29,478 nucleotides of DNA from positions 1-29,478 of IMG/VR virus record IMGVR_UViG_3300032232_001021; one strand, given 5' to 3'. This DNA is from a virus (Duplodnaviria; Caudoviricetes). This document shows positions 14,487 through 26,056 of the stretch, piece after piece. The notes beneath the pieces were generated by a model that was not told the origin of the DNA, searched no databases, and saw nothing but the letters and a program-made list of their open reading frames with translations. Position 1 is the first letter of the stretch, and the number at the start of each line of letters is the position of its first letter. A program made the position numbers and the translations under genes.

Positions 14487-15079
14487 CAACACTCATTGCA
14501 TTTCAGCATGATGATTATTGCATCATCGCCGCAGATACACAAACTACTGGTTATGACATGAGAGCTGATTGTTCTCCTATGGGCAAAATTGCAGAGAATG
14601 GCAAATATTTAGTTTCAGCTGCAGGTTTAGTACGAGGTATGAATCTGATCCAACATGCTTTTAATCCACCAGCACCTCCAAGATCAAAGAATCTGGATAA
14701 GTTTATGGTGACTCAGTTTGTGCCAAATCTGCGTAAAACCTTTGGAATATCAGGTTATGATATTAAATCTGAAGGCTTTCCATCATCATTTGAGAATGAT
14801 TTCATAGTTGCCGTCCAAGGAACTTTGTACTTTATAGATGAAGTATATGGATTAGAAAAAACAAAAGATAAAGTTTATTGCACGGGAACAGGTGCAGCAA
14901 TTGCTCTAGGAGCTGCTCATGCATTAGGAATTGATGAAGCAGATGAATATGAAGATGCAATTGAGATCTTAGAACAAGCAGTCAAAATAGCAATTCGATT
15001 CGATATCAATAGTGGTGGACAAGTACAAGTAGCATTACAAACAAAAGCTGGAAAGAATCACATTGCATTCTTAGATTAA
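14483..15079 (+). CDS. Ntn-hydrolase peptidase (HslV/proteasome beta-like)
   Basis: Start ATG 14483 with GGAGG RBS gives MTTLIAF...IIAADTQTT (N-terminal Thr nucleophile), GKI, GTGAAIALGA, DINSGG. Confidence 0.82.
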   Translation: MTTLIAFQHDDYCIIAADTQTTGYDMRADCSPMGKIAENGKYLVSAAGLVRGMNLIQHAFNPPAPPRSKNLDKFMVTQFVPNLRKTFGISGYDIKSEGFPSSFENDFIVAVQGTLYFIDEVYGLEKTKDKVYCTGTGAAIALGAAHALGIDEADEYEDAIEILEQAVKIAIRFDINSGGQVQVALQTKAGKNHIAFLD

Positions 15080-15085
15080 AATAGC

Positions 15086-15127
15086 AAAAAAAAGCCCCTG
15101 CCTTTCGGCAGGGGACTAATTTTTTTA
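15086..15127. terminator. Bidirectional intrinsic terminator between convergent operons
   Basis: A8 run, stem CCCCTGCC-TTTC-GGCAGGGG (15095-15114), T-run downstream. Confidence 0.88.
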
Positions 15128-15131
15128 TTAA

Positions 15132-15497
15132 CTAAGCATTTGCTTTTTCTACCATAACAAAACCATCCTCTGAAACTAAGTACACAGGACCGTCTTGAAG
15201 TTCTACTGAAGTTTCAGAGCGATTGATCTGAACTGTATCGCCAATTGAAAGAGAAGTATGTGTGCGATTTTCTGGCAGTACTTTTTCAATTGAATTCCAT
15301 AACTCAATATATGGTAAAGAAAAACCAAAATCTGCAAGTTCAGATTTTAGATTAGTTGCATCGTAAATTACATTTAATAAAGTAGGATTTTTAATTTCGT
15401 TTAACTTTCCAGTTAATTCTACGGTTGCAGAAGTAACAAAGCGATTTGCTTCTGGACGATCTCCAAAAGCTTTCCATGTGATTACGATCTGTGACAT
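15132..15497 (-). CDS. Hypothetical protein with YodL-like C-terminal motif
   Basis: 121 aa, strong AGGAGG RBS; HTSLSIGDTVQI...YLVSEDGF resembles the YodL HSLSVSDVV...YYVD..GF signature. Confidence 0.6.
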   Translation of the reverse strand: MSQIVITWKAFGDRPEANRFVTSATVELTGKLNEIKNPTLLNVIYDATNLKSELADFGFSLPYIELWNSIEKVLPENRTHTSLSIGDTVQINRSETSVELQDGPVYLVSEDGFVMVEKANA

Positions 15498-15600
15498 TTT
15501 TTCCTCCTGGCGGTTGGTATGAGCTTGTGCTCATGGATACATTCTAAGGCCGTGGACATCTACTTGTACACTTCATTTAGAACTATTTTTAAGATCTTAT
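15498..15600 (-). promoter_or_regulatory. Promoter/leader cassette 1
   Basis: Minus strand: ATAAGATCTT ... TGTACA-18 nt (contains GTCCAC)-TAGAAT, hairpin ATGAGC-ACAA-GCTCAT, AACCGCCAGGAGGAAAAAATG. Confidence 0.75.
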
Positions 15601-15634: not shown

Positions 15635-15673
15635 AAAAAAGGACCCCCTCCATTCGGAAGGGGCCCTTTTTTT
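15635..15673 (-). terminator. Intrinsic terminator after the DUF932 gene
   Basis: Minus strand GGGCCCCTTCC-GAAT-GGAGGGGGTCC followed by T6; two G-U pairs fix the strand. Confidence 0.85.
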
Positions 15674-15681
15674 GTTTATAC

Positions 15682-16650
15682 CTAGCGAACCATCTCCAAG
15701 ACTCGATCTGATAGAGATGTTCCTTGATTCATCATGAATCGCTCGCCAGCCGCAAAATCATTAGCTGAACGAGTCGTGCGGGTCCATTGTTCAAACTCTG
15801 TGAAAGCATTGACAATTCCCCATGCTGTTCCTTTGATGTTCTCTTGAGTCTGGCCGTTCCAGATACCTAGAAGCATTTGGTGACGCTCACGAACATTGTT
15901 TTGCTGACGCTCAGTCATGTTGTTTTCATCTAGAGGAAGAACATCTTTGACGATTGACCAGAAGTCAGAATTAGCAACTTTCTTATCAAATAGAGAAGAT
16001 GAAAGAAGGTTGAATTCTTCATTTGACTTAAGAACAACACCTAGAGTTTGACGAACATCTTCGATCTTGACATTCATACGAGCTGAATGGCGGAAAGAAA
16101 TAGAAGAAGCATTAGTCCAACGTGTCATTCCATTTGTACAGACTAAACGAAGATACTTGATTTCGAAGCGAAGTGAATCTGTTCCATCGTGAGTATTTGA
16201 TGCAACTAGAAATGCTTCGACTGGATCAACATTCTTGAGAGTAAGATCAAGAGTGTTAGGAAGCTTTGCAGCCATGAAGATTTTCTTGCCACCGCGTAGT
16301 TCACCAGCTGACTGGTAAATTGCACCGGCTTCATACATAACAGAATCCACAATGTTGACAATGTCGTTGTTCTGGACAATTGTATATGTAGGAGAAGTGA
16401 TACCAAGAACAGAAGCTGATCCGTCCTTATTGACACGAGTTGTAGCAACTTTGTCTTCAAGTTTGACGATTGTTACACCGTCATTGTTAATTGCTGTAGT
16501 TGAAAGTGAAGTGTGTTGAACTTCCCAGTCAAGATTTGCATTCTCAAGAACTTGAGCTGCAGAGATTTGCTCGTCACTTGAATTTACCCATGTTGCTGTG
16601 CTGATCCATGGAGCCTTGCGACGTGCTGCGTTTTGGATTTGTACTGACAT
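15682..16650 (-). CDS. DUF932-family phage/plasmid protein
   Basis: ANLDWEV, YTIVQN, AGELRGGKKIF, NTHDGT, RLVCTNG, FRHS, GTAWGIVNAFTE; start ATG 16650 behind AGGAGG (322 aa). Confidence 0.88.
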   Translation of the reverse strand: MSVQIQNAARRKAPWISTATWVNSSDEQISAAQVLENANLDWEVQHTSLSTTAINNDGVTIVKLEDKVATTRVNKDGSASVLGITSPTYTIVQNNDIVNIVDSVMYEAGAIYQSAGELRGGKKIFMAAKLPNTLDLTLKNVDPVEAFLVASNTHDGTDSLRFEIKYLRLVCTNGMTRWTNASSISFRHSARMNVKIEDVRQTLGVVLKSNEEFNLLSSSLFDKKVANSDFWSIVKDVLPLDENNMTERQQNNVRERHQMLLGIWNGQTQENIKGTAWGIVNAFTEFEQWTRTTRSANDFAAGERFMMNQGTSLSDRVLEMVR

Positions 16651-16677
16651 TTGTTCCTCCTGGCGATTTATTCTGAT

Positions 16678-16732
16678 GGACTCATCAGCAGTGTCATTTA
16701 ACACTGGACACTCCTTACGGAGTGTTTCGTCC
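16678..16732 (-). ncRNA. Type II hammerhead ribozyme
   Basis: Minus strand GGAC-GAA-ACACUCC-GUAA-GGAGUGU-C^-CAGUGU-UAAAUG-ACACUG-CUGAUGA-GUCC: core GAAA, GUC triplet, CUGAUGA and three perfect stems; fills the intergenic gap. Confidence 0.95.
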
Positions 16733-16983
16733 TAATTAAACTTTACTAATAACTCTGGAGCAAACTTATTTGCGCAAGTTTGTCCAATTGCAAAACAACC
16801 TTGTGAATTTTTTTCATCGCTATTTGGAGCAATTACTTCCCATGAAGTATTAACTTCAAAGAAAAGTGGATTTTTACCAAGCGCACGACCACATTCAGTG
16901 CATAGATCTCCAATTGAATCCAAAGCTTTGCGATTGCTTGGAGCTGAAGAACCTACATTGTACTTGTATGTTGTTGTTGACAT
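16732..16983 (-). CDS. Small Cys-rich (Zn-binding) hypothetical protein, 83 aa
   Basis: Start ATG 16983 behind AGGAGG; CTECGR ... GCFAIGQTCA. Confidence 0.75.
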   Translation of the reverse strand: MSTTTYKYNVGSSAPSNRKALDSIGDLCTECGRALGKNPLFFEVNTSWEVIAPNSDEKNSQGCFAIGQTCANKFAPELLVKFN

Positions 16984-17080
16984 TTTTTCCTCCTGGCGGT
17001 TATGGCAACCGGTTGGTTGCTCATAGGTACATTCAATACTGTCCACCGGCATTTGTACACTCTATTGAATAAGATCTTAT
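16984..17080 (-). promoter_or_regulatory. Promoter/leader cassette 2
   Basis: Minus strand: ATAAGATCTT ... TGTACA-17 nt (contains GTGGAC)-TTGAAT, TATGAGCAACC...GGTTGCCATA hairpin, AACCGCCAGGAGGAAAAAATG. Confidence 0.72.
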
Positions 17081-17262
17081 GGGAACCTTTTGACACCTTT
17101 TGGAGTCCGTTTAGTCCAGATCGAGCGGCCAGGTTTGTCCCAGGACGACGGACATATCGATCCGAGTATATTTATACTCACCACAAATGGACCCGCGTCC
17201 TGGTGGATCCTGGCGGTTCTGGTTAACTTATGTGCCACCGGCCAGAACAGATGTTCTAGTAA

Positions 17263-17366
17263 ATAAGATTTTTTAGAAACATTTCCACAAATGGTGGATA
17301 TATGTCCACAAACAGTGTATATTGATCCTATGAGCAACCGCTCATACTAACCGCCAGGAGGACAAA
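17263..17366 (+). promoter_or_regulatory. Promoter/leader cassette 3 (divergent) with palindromic operator
   Basis: ATAAGATTTT, near-palindrome GTGGATATATGTCCAC (17294-17309), -10-like TATATT, hairpin TATGAGC-AACC-GCTCATA, AACCGCCAGGAGGACAAAATG. Confidence 0.72.
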
Positions 17367-17561
17367 ATGTCACACGAAATGATAAAGGTACTTGATGATT
17401 CAAAAGTTGGATTTCATTATGTATCACCAAAAGGAAATGTCCGTGTAGTAAAAAATGTTAACGATTCATGGGTTATTTCTTTGAATAATAAAGAAATTGA
17501 AATGTACGGAGTTGGTTACACAGCACTTTGCGTCGCTTCACAGATTGCAGAGGCAAACTAA
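17367..17561 (+). CDS. Hypothetical early protein
   Basis: 64 aa, strong AGGAGG RBS. Confidence 0.75.
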   Translation: MSHEMIKVLDDSKVGFHYVSPKGNVRVVKNVNDSWVISLNNKEIEMYGVGYTALCVASQIAEAN

Positions 17562-20511: not shown

Positions 20512-21046
20512 GAATTATGTAGATGTACCACAAAGAATTAAACTGTTCTACGAAAAGTATCCAGAAGGTTCATTGCAGATGGATCCTGATCTTCAATTTC
20601 AGACAGTTGGAGATCAAATCATTGTGATTGGTAGAGCTTATGCTTATCGCAATGCACAAGATGAAAAACCTGGCGTTGGTACAGCGCAAGAATATTTGCC
20701 TGGTAAAACTAACTTTACTCGAGGTAGTGAAATACAAAACCTTGAAACAAGTTGCTGGGGCAGAGCAATCGGAGCTTTAGGCATAGGCATTGATAAAGCA
20801 ATTGCAAGTAAAGAAGAAGTTGAACTTGCAATGGAACGCAACAAACCAGACAAGGTCATGATGAAACGTACAAATCCTGGTTTAAAGCAAATAGTAGAGT
20901 TGTTAGGAACACAAGGCATCACGGAGAAGGATGCAATCCTAGCGGCAGTACGCGGTTTAGTAGACCGTGAAATTAGTTCGAGTAATGATCTTACTGATGA
21001 TGAGGTCGCGCTTATTATCAAAAACCTGGCGGTTGTAGGATCATGA
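20495..21046 (+). CDS. Putative single-strand annealing recombinase
   Basis: YVDVPQRIKLF, NLETSCWGRAIGALGIG, IASKEEV; adjacent to the exonuclease. Confidence 0.65.
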   Translation: MDKRLENYVDVPQRIKLFYEKYPEGSLQMDPDLQFQTVGDQIIVIGRAYAYRNAQDEKPGVGTAQEYLPGKTNFTRGSEIQNLETSCWGRAIGALGIGIDKAIASKEEVELAMERNKPDKVMMKRTNPGLKQIVELLGTQGITEKDAILAAVRGLVDREISSSNDLTDDEVALIIKNLAVVGS

Positions 21047-21468
21047 CTCGAATGTCTTGGGACAAATATGGATTGGAGATTGCGAGAGCAGCCTCCTATC
21101 GCAGTGAAGATCCATATCTCAAAGTTGGTGCATGCGTTCTACGCGGGGATAGAAGCATAATAAGCATCGGCTACAATGGGGCTGCGCCTGGCGTTGATAT
21201 TCCTTGGAGAGATAGAGACGCTAGGCGTGGTTTTGTAATACATGCAGAAGTAAATGCATTACGCTATTGCACGCCAGATCAGACTAAGGGCGGATATTTG
21301 TACGTGACGCATCATCCTTGTTCTGAATGCATAAAAGTAATTGCTAGTTATGGAATTTCTAATGTCATGTATTCTGATTTGATAGATGTAGCAGTTTACG
21401 ATCTATCTTCAATTGCCGAATTGGCAAAAGCTTTTAATATTTCATTGAAACAGGAGGTACGGCAATGA
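21043..21468 (+). CDS. dCMP deaminase family protein
   Basis: RSEDPYLKVGAC, GYNG, HAEVNAL, PCSEC zinc-deaminase motifs. Confidence 0.92.
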   Translation: MTRMSWDKYGLEIARAASYRSEDPYLKVGACVLRGDRSIISIGYNGAAPGVDIPWRDRDARRGFVIHAEVNALRYCTPDQTKGGYLYVTHHPCSECIKVIASYGISNVMYSDLIDVAVYDLSSIAELAKAFNISLKQEVRQ

Positions 21469-21896
21469 GTTCTTTACAAATGATTTTGGATAATCAAAGA
21501 AAGTTACAGTTAAAATCGTATGGAGTAGATGTATCTACTTTAGATGGAGAAGAAAGAGCAGCTTACATTCGAAACATGTCTTTGGCATTGACAGATGAGT
21601 TGCATGAAGCATTAAATGAAACGGGTTGGAAACCATGGGCAACTAGTAGGCATCTAAATAGAGCAGCTTTTGCCGGAGAGATGATAGATGTACTTCATTT
21701 CTGGGTTAACCTAATGCTAGTTGCAGGAGTTACAGAACAAGACATACTTGATCTTTACTTTGCAAAAGCAGATAAAAATGCCAAGCGTCAATTAAATGGC
21801 TATGACGGCATTGACGGCAAGTGCAAGACTTGTGGACGAGCATTTGACGATGGCGCTGTTCTTTGCACTCCCATTGCTTGTGAACACATAGAATGA
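21465..21896 (+). CDS. All-alpha NTP pyrophosphatase (dimeric dUTPase / T4 gp56 dCTPase-like)
   Basis: DELHEALNETGWKPW, EMIDVLHF, YFAKADKNAKRQ. Confidence 0.85.
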   Translation: MSSLQMILDNQRKLQLKSYGVDVSTLDGEERAAYIRNMSLALTDELHEALNETGWKPWATSRHLNRAAFAGEMIDVLHFWVNLMLVAGVTEQDILDLYFAKADKNAKRQLNGYDGIDGKCKTCGRAFDDGAVLCTPIACEHIE

Positions 21897-22891
21897 AATA
21901 CGTTTTAGATGATGTAGTCACATCTTTCACTGATCGCATTGCAAGTCATAGATCTGCTTGGACACGTATGCAGAAATGTATGGTGGACAATACTTTCGAT
22001 ACAAAGTCTGAAATTGCTTTTGGCAATGCTGCTGCAGTAAAAGATGGCACTTGGTTGGTGTCTACTCCAATGGAATTCAAAGGTGAAGTATTTAATTTAT
22101 TTGGCGGATATACAAAAGAGACTCGAGACAGAATTGCACGAGTTTTGGATATGGATCTTGCAAATATCAAAGCTTTGGATATGCCTGTTGGTGACATTGA
22201 AAGAATTCTTCGTCCGCGTGCAGCAAAGACTGATTTTGATTTTACTGAAGCAGAATGGTCAAAAATCCGTGATCTAATGAAATGTGAAGTTATAAAGCAC
22301 GAAGATCTTGTCTTAGATATTCAAAGAGTAGTTATTGGCGACTCACATTCAATTTCAAGATACCGAGCAAATACCGTTGTTTATCGTCATGATGGTTTGA
22401 CTCTTCATGGTTTGACTGAAAGAGGAGTAGAACCTTATCTTCCTGATTACTTTGTACCACACTTAGTTATTTATGCGGGAAACGTAGACATTAGACACCA
22501 TTTGTGCAGACAGTTAGATCCTGAAGGATCCGCCAGGAGATTAGTGAGCAATCTGAGAATGCATCTTGAATATATGCAGCAAAAGGGAAAAATAGGAACA
22601 TTTGAGGTAACTGCTCCATATCCGATTGAGTTTGAAGAAAGAAAAATTCCAAAAACAGGATTTTATAAAGGTACAGCGTTCTATGGATCTCATCCTTTGC
22701 GTGACAAAGTTCGTCAAATTATGACTAACGAGATGAAGTATCAGTTTGATAATGTTCACGAGTGGCCAACTAATTGGTACATGATAGATCCAGAAGATTA
22801 TGCAAAAACATACATGGAAAAGCCTGGATCAGTCCACTTGTCGCCTGAGTTTTATGAATGGGATTTGGTTAACAATGCCGAAAATAACTGA
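21893..22891 (+). CDS. Hypothetical protein with C-terminal SGNH-like domain
   Basis: IGDSHS, GLTLHG, AGNVDIRHH, GSVHL resemble SGNH blocks I, II, III, V. Confidence 0.6.
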   Translation: MKYVLDDVVTSFTDRIASHRSAWTRMQKCMVDNTFDTKSEIAFGNAAAVKDGTWLVSTPMEFKGEVFNLFGGYTKETRDRIARVLDMDLANIKALDMPVGDIERILRPRAAKTDFDFTEAEWSKIRDLMKCEVIKHEDLVLDIQRVVIGDSHSISRYRANTVVYRHDGLTLHGLTERGVEPYLPDYFVPHLVIYAGNVDIRHHLCRQLDPEGSARRLVSNLRMHLEYMQQKGKIGTFEVTAPYPIEFEERKIPKTGFYKGTAFYGSHPLRDKVRQIMTNEMKYQFDNVHEWPTNWYMIDPEDYAKTYMEKPGSVHLSPEFYEWDLVNNAENN

Positions 22892-23927
22892 AACCATCTA
22901 TTGGGAAGACTTTAAGAAGTACTACGATAAAGCTGCAGTTTTGCAAAACATAAACATTGCAAGTGCAGGCGGTCGTGATACTTCTGAAGACTTACATGTT
23001 GATGATCCATTGCAGCATCACATTACTATCTATGACACAGTAGATCGTGAATTTGCTGGATTTAGCAATGCTATTCAACAGATTTGGTATGGATCAAACA
23101 ATCCAAAGAAGTGGCAAGTTGACAGTCGTTTTGATGGTTACAACTTGCACACAATGGATTGGTTTTATTTATTCATGATTCACAGAGTCACTGGATCAGG
23201 TGCTTCGTTTAGTTACGACCATGGATTTAGAAATAGCATACTTTCAGATATGGCTCTGAAGACAGATAACATGATTCATATGAGAAACTATGTGTTAAGT
23301 GAGATGAAAACTGGTAGGCCAATCTTTACAAGCATTGGTAATCAGATTCCACAATTCCCTAAGCCAAATGCAGAATATCCACGTGGATCTCAGCTTTACA
23401 TTTCAGAGTATATGCCGCACTTAGTTAAAGATTTCTATACTCATTTGTCTTACAATCCATTGACAATGTCAATTAGAGATGGAGTTGATTGGATCAATGA
23501 ATGGCACAAATCTCAAGGTCTAAAGTGTTTCCATTTTGTAATGACAGCATTTGTAATGGATGTTGCTCAATATTTTCCTACATTGATAGATCCATGGAGT
23601 CAAGTAAACTATGGCAGCAATGCAATTAAAGCTTTGAACTTATTGTTTAAGAATGAAGGTTACAAGCAAAAAGACTTTTTAGATGCTGCAATGGAAGTCA
23701 TTTGCAATCAGTTTAGATCTCCTTATGATCCGCGTGACCACGAAAGAAACTTAGGCAAAGGATTAAGTTTAGAAGATGTTGCATGTGACTATGTCCGATA
23801 CGTTGAATGTTATGTACCAAAAGGTTATGAACACTTAGAACCTTGGCAAGTAACAAACAAATCACTAATACCTCATCATGCAAAACATTGGACATACCAC
23901 AAACACTTGGAGGCTAAAAATGTTTAA
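22875..23927 (+). CDS. Divergent aGPT-Pplase1-like DNA base-hypermodification enzyme (helical, glycosylase-like fold)
   Basis: DPLQHHITIYDTVDRE, FVMTAFVMDVAQY, NYGSNAIKALNLLF, LEDVACDYVRY parallel the family's DPIL..NV.R, F.AY...DL.Y, GPGA..GL..LF and IE..LCE..KY motifs; operon context. Confidence 0.6.
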   Translation: MPKITETIYWEDFKKYYDKAAVLQNINIASAGGRDTSEDLHVDDPLQHHITIYDTVDREFAGFSNAIQQIWYGSNNPKKWQVDSRFDGYNLHTMDWFYLFMIHRVTGSGASFSYDHGFRNSILSDMALKTDNMIHMRNYVLSEMKTGRPIFTSIGNQIPQFPKPNAEYPRGSQLYISEYMPHLVKDFYTHLSYNPLTMSIRDGVDWINEWHKSQGLKCFHFVMTAFVMDVAQYFPTLIDPWSQVNYGSNAIKALNLLFKNEGYKQKDFLDAAMEVICNQFRSPYDPRDHERNLGKGLSLEDVACDYVRYVECYVPKGYEHLEPWQVTNKSLIPHHAKHWTYHKHLEAKNV

Positions 23928-24807
23928 GATAACTACAGACACTTCAAGTAAGTACTCACATCGGCATAGAGAACAATGGTTAGATCTTGCAGGTGATTGG
24001 ACAGATGAAACACAAGCACCAAACATAGGCTCCTTTCATGGTGCAACAATCTGGGATGATTCTGTGACTGGAGTCGGTACAAAAGGTCGTTGGGGAGATC
24101 TATTAGTTAAAACTATGGAATCAGATCATCTAGTTTACGTACAACCAAGAGTCGGTTGGGCAGGAGTTTCATTAGCTGCTCTTGCAAAGAAATATAACAA
24201 AAAGTTAACATTGTTTATGCCTTCCTCAAAAGTAGTCAGTGACCATCAATTAGTTTGTATCGAAAGAGGAGCAAATCCAATCTTTCGAAGAATCGCAGCA
24301 ATGCCAGTTCTCAACAAATATGCCAAAGATTGGGCAGAACAAAATAATGCTCAATTTGTGCCATTTGGTTTAGATCATCCCATAGTTGTTGCAGCTGGAG
24401 TTAAATCTACAATCCAACAATGGGGAGATCGAGATGAACCAAAAGATGTTGTATCAGTTATTAGTACAGGAGTTCTCACAAGAACTCTGCAAATTGCTTG
24501 GCCCAATGCAAGATTCCACGGAATTGCAGTTGCAAGAAACCTTCATGCAGGCGAGATCGGAAGAGCGGACGTTACAACTTACCATAAAGCTTTCAGAGAA
24601 AAAGCTGAGTATGCAGACAAAATCAACGAGGAAATTAACTCTGCACCAACATATGATTGCAAAGGTTTAGAAAGATTTATGTTGGACAAAACTCAAGCAC
24701 CAAAAACACCCTCGACTTTACTATGGAATGTAGCAGGTGACGTAAAACCAGTTATAATGGTCCATTCACAAGTTGAAAGTTTCAGAGAATGGGGTGAGTT
24801 TAGATGA
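23920..24807 (+). CDS. PLP-dependent enzyme, fold type II (TrpB/ACC deaminase-like)
   Basis: GTKGR (PLP Lys), GWAGVSLAALAKKYNKKLTLFMP, ISTGVLT, YDCK, LLWNVA; GGAGG RBS before ATG 23920. Confidence 0.78.
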   Translation: MFKITTDTSSKYSHRHREQWLDLAGDWTDETQAPNIGSFHGATIWDDSVTGVGTKGRWGDLLVKTMESDHLVYVQPRVGWAGVSLAALAKKYNKKLTLFMPSSKVVSDHQLVCIERGANPIFRRIAAMPVLNKYAKDWAEQNNAQFVPFGLDHPIVVAAGVKSTIQQWGDRDEPKDVVSVISTGVLTRTLQIAWPNARFHGIAVARNLHAGEIGRADVTTYHKAFREKAEYADKINEEINSAPTYDCKGLERFMLDKTQAPKTPSTLLWNVAGDVKPVIMVHSQVESFREWGEFR

Positions 24808-25247
24808 TTACCATCATCGAAGGTTCTGATGGAACAGGCAAAACAACTTATGCACAAAAACTAACTGAAAGATACAATGCAAAGTATTTGCATGCTGAAC
24901 AACCTAGATCAAGAATATGGTCAGATGAATACATTAGACCTTTAACTTCTGACAATATGGTTCTTGATCGATGGCATTTAGGTGAAATTGTTTGGCCTAA
25001 AATCTACGGAAGAGTTTCATTATTTGATGAAACAACATTTGATTATTGCAATTGGGAACTTGCCAAACTAGGAGCTAGGTTAATCTTATTAACAAGATCT
25101 GAAGATGCAATAGCAGAAGAATTGCTAAGACGAGGTGAAGAATTGCAAATAGATTTTGTCTTACATTCAAGATCTTTATTTATAGAAGCTTTTAGACAAG
25201 TAAAATACTTAGATAAAACAATAATCCATAGTGAGGTGGTTAGGTAA
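24804..25247 (+). CDS. P-loop nucleotide kinase (thymidylate/dNMP kinase-like)
   Basis: IIEGSDGTGKTT Walker A and LDRWHLGE motif. Confidence 0.85.
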   Translation: MITIIEGSDGTGKTTYAQKLTERYNAKYLHAEQPRSRIWSDEYIRPLTSDNMVLDRWHLGEIVWPKIYGRVSLFDETTFDYCNWELAKLGARLILLTRSEDAIAEELLRRGEELQIDFVLHSRSLFIEAFRQVKYLDKTIIHSEVVR

Positions 25248-26056
25248 TGCATATTATTACAGAAAATCCAAGCGAAGCTTTAGAATTAGCAACTCAATAT
25301 GTGATTGAGCATGGTGAAGCAATATCTCCTCGTGGCATGGTCACGAGAGAACTTCTCAATGTCACTTTACAAGTAGAAAAGCCATGGAACATACCAGTGT
25401 CTATGGAAAATAGAAAACTTAACCACAATATTGGAATTAAAGAAGCTTTACAACTTGTTGGACAAGTTACTGATCCAGAAGCAATGACAGATACAAGTCA
25501 AGTCTTTGGAAAGTATATGGATAATGGAATTCTTCATGGAGCTTATGGTCCAAGAATTCACGGTAATCTCAACAAAGTTGTAGATCAATTAAAGAAAGAT
25601 TACTCTACCAGACAAGCAGTATTGACCATATTTGACTCAAATAAAGATCTAAACGTTGACGTGAAAGATGTTCCATGTACTCTAAACTTGCAATACTTCA
25701 TTCGAGACAATAAGTTAATTGCTAGAACAAACATGAGAAGTAATGACGTATTCTTAGGTCTTCCATATGATCTAACACAATTTATTGCCCTTCAAGGCGC
25801 AATTGCAAAGGCTTTAGATATAGAAATGGGCCAATACGTACATGTCGTCGGTAGTTTACATATTTATGATGAACATATTCCAAGTGCACAATGGATTAAA
25901 GCATATTTTAATGGATCATTCAAAGATTATGAACCAATGTGGACTGGAAATAGCATTGGTGAGATAAGTCATACAGCAAGATCTATTCTAAAAGGTAATA
26001 TTCCAAATACTTTGACTAGGTTTGAAAGATTTTTGTCAGGTAAAGTAAATGATTAA
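25247..26056 (+). CDS. Thymidylate synthase superfamily enzyme, probably a dCMP (hydroxy)methylase
   Basis: AYGPRI, TRQAV, VPCT (Cys144), MRSND, GLPYD (Asp175), GSLHIY. Confidence 0.88.
   Translation: MHIITENPSEALELATQYVIEHGEAISPRGMVTRELLNVTLQVEKPWNIPVSMENRKLNHNIGIKEALQLVGQVTDPEAMTDTSQVFGKYMDNGILHGAYGPRIHGNLNKVVDQLKKDYSTRQAVLTIFDSNKDLNVDVKDVPCTLNLQYFIRDNKLIARTNMRSNDVFLGLPYDLTQFIALQGAIAKALDIEMGQYVHVVGSLHIYDEHIPSAQWIKAYFNGSFKDYEPMWTGNSIGEISHTARSILKGNIPNTLTRFERFLSGKVND

Follow-up and report, generated by a model that had tools for sequence, protein, structure and literature searches.

A type II hammerhead ribozyme motif between a variable small gene and a DUF932 gene in a probable actinobacterial phage

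The window, by which we mean the entire stretch of 29,478 nucleotides that was analysed, is a 29.5-kb virus contig, about 80% complete and with a G+C content of 40%, whose genes include those for a portal, a prohead protease, a capsid protein, a WhiB protein and SSB; no tRNA was found in the record. Most of the 475 phage records with a DUF932 match, all at less than 60% identity, infect actinobacteria, and we infer an actinobacterial host. On the plus strand, genes for a dCMP deaminase, a dUTPase, a threonine-dehydratase-like protein, a kinase and a thymidylate-synthase-like protein are clustered at 21043-26056, which may point to a modified DNA base. The hammerhead sits in a short minus-strand island bounded by terminator-like hairpins at 15075-15135 and about 15635-15673, which have T runs on both sides and are probably bidirectional. 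The features of the locus are as follows.

About 17059 to 16978, minus strand: promoter-like cassette (putative function) with TGTACA at 17059-17054, TTGAAT at 17036-17031, a 5' hairpin at 17024-17002 and the ribosome-binding motif.
16983 to 16732, minus strand: slot gene, 83 amino acids, with no Pfam or PHROG family in family searches; relatives have unrelated small genes here.
16733 to 16678, minus strand: type II hammerhead ribozyme motif with stem II open, including the 5' flanking A16733 (sequence, Rfam RF02276 at 28.6 bits, covariation).
16733, minus strand: A of the upstream stop codon, standing in for the loop II A in the contact with U1.7 (putative contact); A in all 54 family loci.
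16732 to 16729, minus strand: 5' strand of stem II, GGAC, pairing with GUCC at 16681-16678; the upstream UAG (16734-16732) ends in its first G.
16728 to 16708, minus strand: GAAA core (16728-16725) and stem III hairpin (7 bp, ACACUCC/GGAGUGU, 16725-16708, GUAA loop), from the sequence and its relatives.
16707/16706, minus strand: predicted cleavage site GUC^C, after C17 (16707), placed by the established hammerhead consensus, with nearby RNA contig ends as a weak hint.
16706 to 16689, minus strand: stem I hairpin CAGUGU/ACACUG, 6 bp, with loop UAAAUG and U1.7 at 16700 (folding, covariation, survey).
16688 to 16682, minus strand: catalytic core CUGAUGA, invariant in 9 of 9 distinct family sequences.
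16678 to 16673, minus strand: anti-core tail CAUCAG, complementary to CUGAUG, predicted to form a 6-bp hairpin (16688-16673) that excludes stem II (folding, survey).
16668 to 16648, minus strand: ribosome-binding motif AAUCGCCAGGAGG..AUG, a repeat with near-identical copies before three other genes (repeat family D1; inverted pairs I1, I2 and I5).
16650 to 15682, minus strand: DUF932/TIGR03299-family gene, 322 amino acids (PF06067, E 3.7e-43).
About 15673 to 15635, minus strand: intrinsic-terminator-like hairpin 3' of the DUF932 gene, closing the two-gene unit.

The hammerhead consensus of CUGANGA, GAAA and NUH at a three-way junction is complete here, down to every core base, and with stems I and III closed by loops and stem II open the arrangement is the type II permutation as defined by Perreault et al. 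2011 (PMC3088659). An earlier, sequence-only reading had recognised the core nucleotides and three perfect stems on the minus strand, had let the motif begin at the last G of the upstream UAG and had put the cut 56 nt before the DUF932 start codon. The positions of the bases agree on each count, the predicted cut at 16707/16706 lying 56 nt upstream of the ATG at 16650, and the DUF932 identity of the downstream gene also held. The Rfam comparison which that reading had proposed gave a divided answer: Hammerhead_II (RF02276) is the best family at the site and matches over the full model length, with an E value of 2.4e-4 in a 141-nt search and 1.2e-5 in a genome search, but its 28.6 bits fall short of the 37-bit gathering threshold, and Rfam scans of the whole window or of 4.2 kb listed no hammerhead match. 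The hammerhead resembles the RF02276 family but lies below curated-threshold membership. A descriptor with stems of at least 4/3/4 bp matched once in the window and in none of 150 first-order resampled windows, and the loosest form (3/2/3) gave a single chance match in the 150; neither the descriptor nor the Rfam genome search found a second hammerhead in the record. Judged by its sequence, the element at 16732-16678 is a real type II hammerhead motif, an identity that covariation upholds.

The first search returned 36 loci, of which 7 without upstream DNA were dropped, and the ribozyme is present in all of the remaining 29. Alignment-based searches added 28 close loci with the gene start (truncated L184, L201, L207-L210 and L228 were left out): 25 carry the full motif, two are contigs that begin inside it with a matching 3' half, and L177 is without it. 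The hammerhead thus precedes DUF932 in 54 of 57 close relative loci, a count that includes many identical contigs from two collections or near-identical strains and comes down to nine distinct, related sequences. Over these nine, pairing is kept in 153 of 153 cells, and two-sided changes affect 7 of the 17 pairs (two in stem II, one in stem III and four in stem I), around an invariant core; this covariation stems from few events, the changes in stems II and III sitting in one sequence. Stem II reads GAGC/GCUC in L183 and L206, and the stem III loop is GCAA, UUCG or UUAC in relatives in place of GUAA. The change in stem II of L183 (2918-2981) turns CTGATGAG/CTCATCAG into a perfect palindrome of 16 bp and leaves the anti-core hairpin in place. 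The sequence-only reading had pointed to the leaders of DUF932 genes in related phages as the place to look, and the yield depends on distance: the motif stands at 54 of 57 close loci, yet the descriptor matched at 0 of 53 distant DUF932 homolog loci (27-33% identity). At L265 and L266 a small gene lies directly before DUF932 with no ribozyme within the 300 nt viewed. The association of hammerhead and DUF932 is therefore clade-specific.

What lies upstream of the ribozyme is far less constant. Nine unrelated protein groups of 46-163 amino acids fill the slot between cassette and ribozyme across 54 rows (the window and 53 loci; L182 was left unscored), and in 51 of the 54 the slot gene ends with its stop codon against or within stem II, the stop lying 2-3 nt away in the other 3. 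The slot-gene leaders of relatives have the same cassette layout as that upstream of the window's slot gene, in the order TGTACA, 17-18 nt, a -10-like hexamer, a 5' hairpin and then AACCGCCAGGAGG. In the window this promoter-like cassette stands upstream of three genes, those at 16983 and 15497 and, there with another -35 box, that at 17367. The DUF932 leader has the ribosome-site repeat, with the ribozyme occupying the place of promoter and hairpin. In L177, sister to the ribozyme-bearing L202 (support 96/94), the promoter/hairpin cassette comes directly before DUF932 and there is no ribozyme; pairwise alignment with L202 shows that a deletion between two ribosome-site repeats took slot gene and ribozyme together. 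DUF932 is therefore found either as the first gene behind a promoter and hairpin or as the second gene behind a ribozyme. Since the repeat deletion explains the loss mechanically, it is not independent proof of purpose. Two earlier proposals fit this layout, namely that the two genes form one transcription unit, for which there is one promoter-like cassette upstream and one terminator-like hairpin downstream, and that the ribozyme replaces the promoter/hairpin cassette, as the arrangement in L177 illustrates.

Several further observations concern the cassettes and the DUF932 gene. The repeated cassette (15490-15570 and about 16978-17059 on the minus strand, 17296-17374 on the plus strand) consists of a -35-like box, a 5' hairpin and AACCGCCAGGAGG..ATGTCA; its spacer contains the word GTGGACA/TGTCCAC in either orientation, a possible regulator site, and the repeat doubles as a recombination point, as in the L177 deletion. 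Between two promoter cassettes, 17080-17330 is a gene-free divergent region with a GC-rich patch, similar in L177 and with a further CCGCCAGGA copy near 17208-17222, and is a possible origin or regulatory region. A -35-like motif before distant DUF932 genes was counted in 35 of 51 versus 111 of 255 under loose settings and in 33 of 50 versus 63 of 250 under strict ones, counts that give no support because the sequences are related. An in-frame GUG at 16704, behind UAAGGAG in stem III (a 340-amino-acid ORF), was rejected as a conserved start, being open in frame in only 3 of 12 relatives checked. The AlphaFold model of the DUF932 protein, a confident one (pLDDT 86), has no Foldseek match at E <= 0.001 and a best VIA-align Z of 5.6, too weak to interpret; its PHROG, 1221, carries no function, and the name DUF932 is absent from the main text of PMC11541004.

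The sequence-only reading had proposed a pseudoknot in which the 5' tail GUUUAA pairs with UUAAAU at loop I. This did not survive comparison: GUUUAA belongs to the end of the slot gene's coding sequence in this phage and recurs only in three loci with the same slot gene (L004, L005 and L189). A pseudoknot with the 3' tail is also unlikely, as loop I and tail share at most AUG/CAU, 3 bp that use one stem II base, show no covariation and are broken in L203 without compensation; the motif falls outside the pseudoknot subclass, for which loop I and the tail 3' of stem II must form 4 bp or more. To place it among other phage hammerheads, we surveyed viral contigs with the type II pattern. The survey covered 19 of 64 parts and yielded 140 stretches (of an estimated 430 or so) with 137 distinct cores; after removal of 5 whose stems were weak and 3 that belong to this family, 129 remained (104 short-stem-I and 25 long-stem), a biased subset in that the pattern fixed GAC/GUC in stem II. 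U at position 1.7 occurs in 101 of the 104 short-stem hammerheads, A 5' of the 4-nt stem II strand in 101 and both in 99, as against both in only 2 of the 25 with long stems. At least four pairs between loop and 3' tail, in turn, occur in 20 of the 25 long-stem hammerheads, the pseudoknot class, versus 13 of the 104. The short-stem counts fit the trans-Hoogsteen contact between U1.7 and a loop II A (O'Rourke et al., described in PMC11875169) and the 'U Nm Y N - R Nm A' motif scored in type II ribozymes in Fig. S5 of Perreault et al. (PMC3088659). That sequence motif is complete here (U16700, U16696-G16695, A16677 and A16733), and the tertiary contact is likely to be one between U1.7 and the A of the UAG stop codon.

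The survey also bears on the setting of these elements. A stop codon (of an ORF of at least 35 codons) ends -2 to +4 nt from the ribozyme in 70 of 99 short-stem hammerheads and in 17 of the 25 long-stem ones, compared with 0-7 of 99 at offset control positions and 3% at AG-matched positions; it contains the contact A in 45 of 99. A ribosome site and ORF lie 3' of the ribozyme in 113 of 129. Two of the 111 downstream ORFs scanned are DUF932 (L086 and L110) and most are without a family; genes behind the surveyed hammerheads include those for ArdC-N, DUF3846, YuA gp49, resolvase, AAA and SNF2 proteins. Weinberg et al. 2015 reportedly list ribozyme-associated genes. At L086:2480-2565 and, in L110, upstream of 1469 on the minus strand, pseudoknot-type hammerheads come directly before distant DUF932 genes of unrelated phages, which suggests independent recruitment to DUF932. 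Many contigs in the range L037-L176 have two or three type II hammerheads a few hundred bases apart, each lying between a stop codon and a ribosome site.

Of the anti-core tail, CAUCA is present in all nine family sequences and the final G in seven. ViennaRNA puts the tail-hairpin fold at -24.4 and the active fold at -21.6 kcal/mol, a gap of 2.8 in a calculation that ignores tertiary contacts, and the predicted probability of stem II falls from 0.98 to 0.03 as the transcript extends from 16676 to 16673; once CAUCAG has been made it is close to 0, and it is at or below 0.02 in 16 of 16 contexts. Before cutting, the tail could thereby slow or gate the reaction. The tail recurs in 22 of the 104 unrelated short-stem hammerheads and in none of the 25 with long stems; at least five complementary bases occur in 26 of the 104, against a shuffled mean of 3.4 and maximum of 10. 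Pair counts are silent on the anti-core helix because the fixed core prevents covariation. In the predicted 3' product the first six nucleotides are paired with a probability of at least 0.95 and two stacked hairpins run from the first nucleotide, as expected from the earlier proposal of a hairpin-protected end. The computed cost of opening the ribosome site after cutting is lower in 11 of 16 contexts, higher in 4 and unchanged in 1, so that the model lends weak support to translational insulation by cutting. With a gain this small and mixed, stability and uncoupling are more likely roles than translational rescue.

RNA assemblies were compared as assembled contigs, which do not give strand or true ends, for 8 of 14 listed RNA runs. 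Four of these (X1, X3, X4 and X13) reach the ribozyme and four (X2, X5, X10 and X11) do not. The contigs of X1 and X3 end at 16691 and that of X13 at 16689, in three separate studies. All three ends are 15-17 nt downstream from where the cut is predicted and coincide with the 3' foot of stem I; the contigs run through the tail hairpin and have no loose ends. In X1 the slot gene is on a separate contig (16729-16988), and in X13 a further piece aligns as far as 17001, where the promoter hairpin has its foot, in the same pattern as at stem I. X4 has an 11.4-kb contig across the site, which is likely to be DNA carry-over because it covers the divergent promoter region too. X2 and X5 share another end at 16637, so coincident contig ends can arise otherwise, and reverse-transcriptase stops at structure could also cause them; the contig ends are a weak hint of cutting. 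All shares of the RNA runs are small, and for this reason we make no claim about habitat. A different contig in X4 (record 9) shares 16672-16709 and has another stem III and start of stem II; it is another hammerhead of the same subclass with the same tail.

At the level of sequence, the motif, its covariation, the variable slot and the joint loss of gene and ribozyme in one relative are established. On this basis we propose that the hammerhead probably cuts a predicted two-gene mRNA at 16707/16706 and would provide DUF932 with the same hairpin-capped 5' end whatever slot gene lies upstream. Transcription would run from the cassette near 17024 to the terminator near 15635, and the ribozyme would fold while being made, aided by contact between U16700 (U1.7) and A16733 of the stop codon. 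The cut would release two RNAs, that of the slot gene with the stem III hairpin at its end and that of DUF932 with a 5'-OH. The leftover core would then pair with the CAUCAG tail, so that two hairpins stacked on each other would form the new 5' end and leave no base unpaired there; an unstructured spacer would separate them from the ribosome site. Decay that depends on the 5' end, by RNase E and RNase J, is slowed by a 5'-OH and by terminal hairpins. The hairpin end would block both religation and such decay, uncoupling the lifetime of the DUF932 mRNA from that of the slot gene, and the ribozyme product would mimic the benefit that first genes draw from their promoter-plus-hairpin cassette. 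This reading is supported by the presence of the motif at 54 of 57 loci, covariation, the nine slot families, L177 and stop-codon adjacency, and further by L086 and L110, the predicted 3' product, the RNA contig ends and the cleavage of comparable phage hammerheads. Against it speak the ViennaRNA preference for the tail hairpin, the X4 contig that crosses the site, and L265, L266 and the distant homologs without a ribozyme.

The most serious competitor, which we nevertheless hold to be unlikely, is a gated ribozyme that the tail keeps off by default, in which timing would decide about the cut. While a ribosome terminates at the slot stop codon, stem II and A16733 would be covered and the tail hairpin would prevail; if the message is untranslated or uncoupled, the ribozyme would fold and cut within the 5 nt that are transcribed before the tail emerges. 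The predicted collapse of stem II between 16676 and 16673 speaks for such a switch, as does the recurrence of the tail, or of at least five complementary bases above the shuffled mean, in unrelated hammerheads; on the other side, 82 of the 104 similar hammerheads are without the tail. The placing of the contact A in the stop codon (45 of 99) and the abutting stops of the family (51 of 54) fit the same idea, but the pseudoknot class, in which the A plays no part, shows stop adjacency just as often (17 of 25), so that compact packing explains it. A post-cleavage hairpin, moreover, fully explains the tail, and the RNA contigs hint that cutting is common. Extended to many phage type II hammerheads, the gating idea would make them translation-gated gene separators, in which the stop codon gives the tertiary A, CAUCAG closes a window of about five nucleotides and ribosome timing at that codon determines whether the downstream gene is given a cut message with two hairpins at its end; here the element would be a natural socket for swappable small genes that leaves DUF932 undisturbed. 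We offer this generalisation as speculation and doubt that it is correct.

It is less probable still that the cut serves the upstream product, with DUF932 a bystander. The slot-gene RNA would then gain a hairpin and a 2',3'-cyclic phosphate 25 nt past its stop, and the predicted cut would set the dose or lifetime of the variable slot gene. Stem III would indeed close the 5' product at its 3' end as a hairpin, in the type II geometry each of the two new ends carries a hairpin, and stop codons generally abut the ribozyme; yet the ribozyme travels with DUF932 and not with any one slot gene, and unrelated hammerheads are also found before distant DUF932 genes. This reading and that of a defined DUF932 end are not mutually exclusive. 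Finally, an inactive motif, or one kept for a DNA-level or structural reason such as the imperfect palindrome CTGATG..CATCAG or use as an anchor when slot genes are swapped by recombination, would agree with the sub-threshold Rfam score, a predicted minimum-energy fold that differs from the active one and the 4 of 18 consensus hammerheads reported inactive in PMC3088659, but is very improbable given the invariant unpaired catalytic bases and the covariation of three stems, neither of which a DNA homology anchor needs.

Intercistronic phage hammerheads have been known since 2011, when Perreault et al. (PMC3088659) described type II hammerheads flanking phage genes that cleave in vitro and in E. 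coli and proposed that long phage transcripts are processed to operon- or gene-length mRNAs; classes of ribozyme-associated genes are likewise described (PMC5737381), and a 2019 review calls the purpose of phage hammerheads unresolved. To this the locus adds its slot, a natural deletion, the stop-codon A and the tail, and these make that functional question testable: in this compact test case a single ribozyme and a fixed gene come with nine natural upstream partners and, in one relative, a natural loss of the ribozyme. An incomplete literature search, by listing, found no publication that links a hammerhead to DUF932 or deals with the stop-codon A or the anti-core tail; the DUF932 link may be in print.

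The closest relatives of the element are the type II hammerheads of PMC3088659, with which it shares permutation, core and a position between phage genes. Their consensus, as presented there, has a pseudoknot between loop I and 3' tail and often a 2-bp stem II, whereas the hammerhead described here has a 4-bp stem II, a short loop I, an anti-core tail and at most three loop-tail pairs, without covariation; it is also a single copy in its record, in contrast to the clusters reported. Compared with the known U1.7/loop II A contact, the element agrees in having a U seven bases past the cut, in ending loop I with Y-N, in the purine that comes after stem II and in the A directly 5' of the other strand, and the difference is that loop II is open here and the A comes from the upstream stop codon. 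HHphage of the haloviruses HF1 and HF2, for which the mapped 5' end of a transcript is no more than 3 nt from the cut site (PMC3088659), is similarly a hammerhead just upstream of an early phage gene, but is a core variant, belongs to an archaeal virus and lies before the first ORF of a polycistron. The engineered analogue is RiboJ, a synthetic insulator composed of a hammerhead and a downstream hairpin that has been used in an actinobacterium (PMC8942793). Hammerhead, hairpin and ribosome site follow in the same order, and the ribozyme would work like RiboJ in giving a uniform 5' end whatever lies upstream. Unlike RiboJ, the present element is natural, type II and intercistronic, and its hairpins are its own stem I and the core paired with the tail, its insulating role being the predicted part of the comparison. 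As a putative 60-nt natural insulator of a likely actinobacterial phage, it could serve as a useful part.
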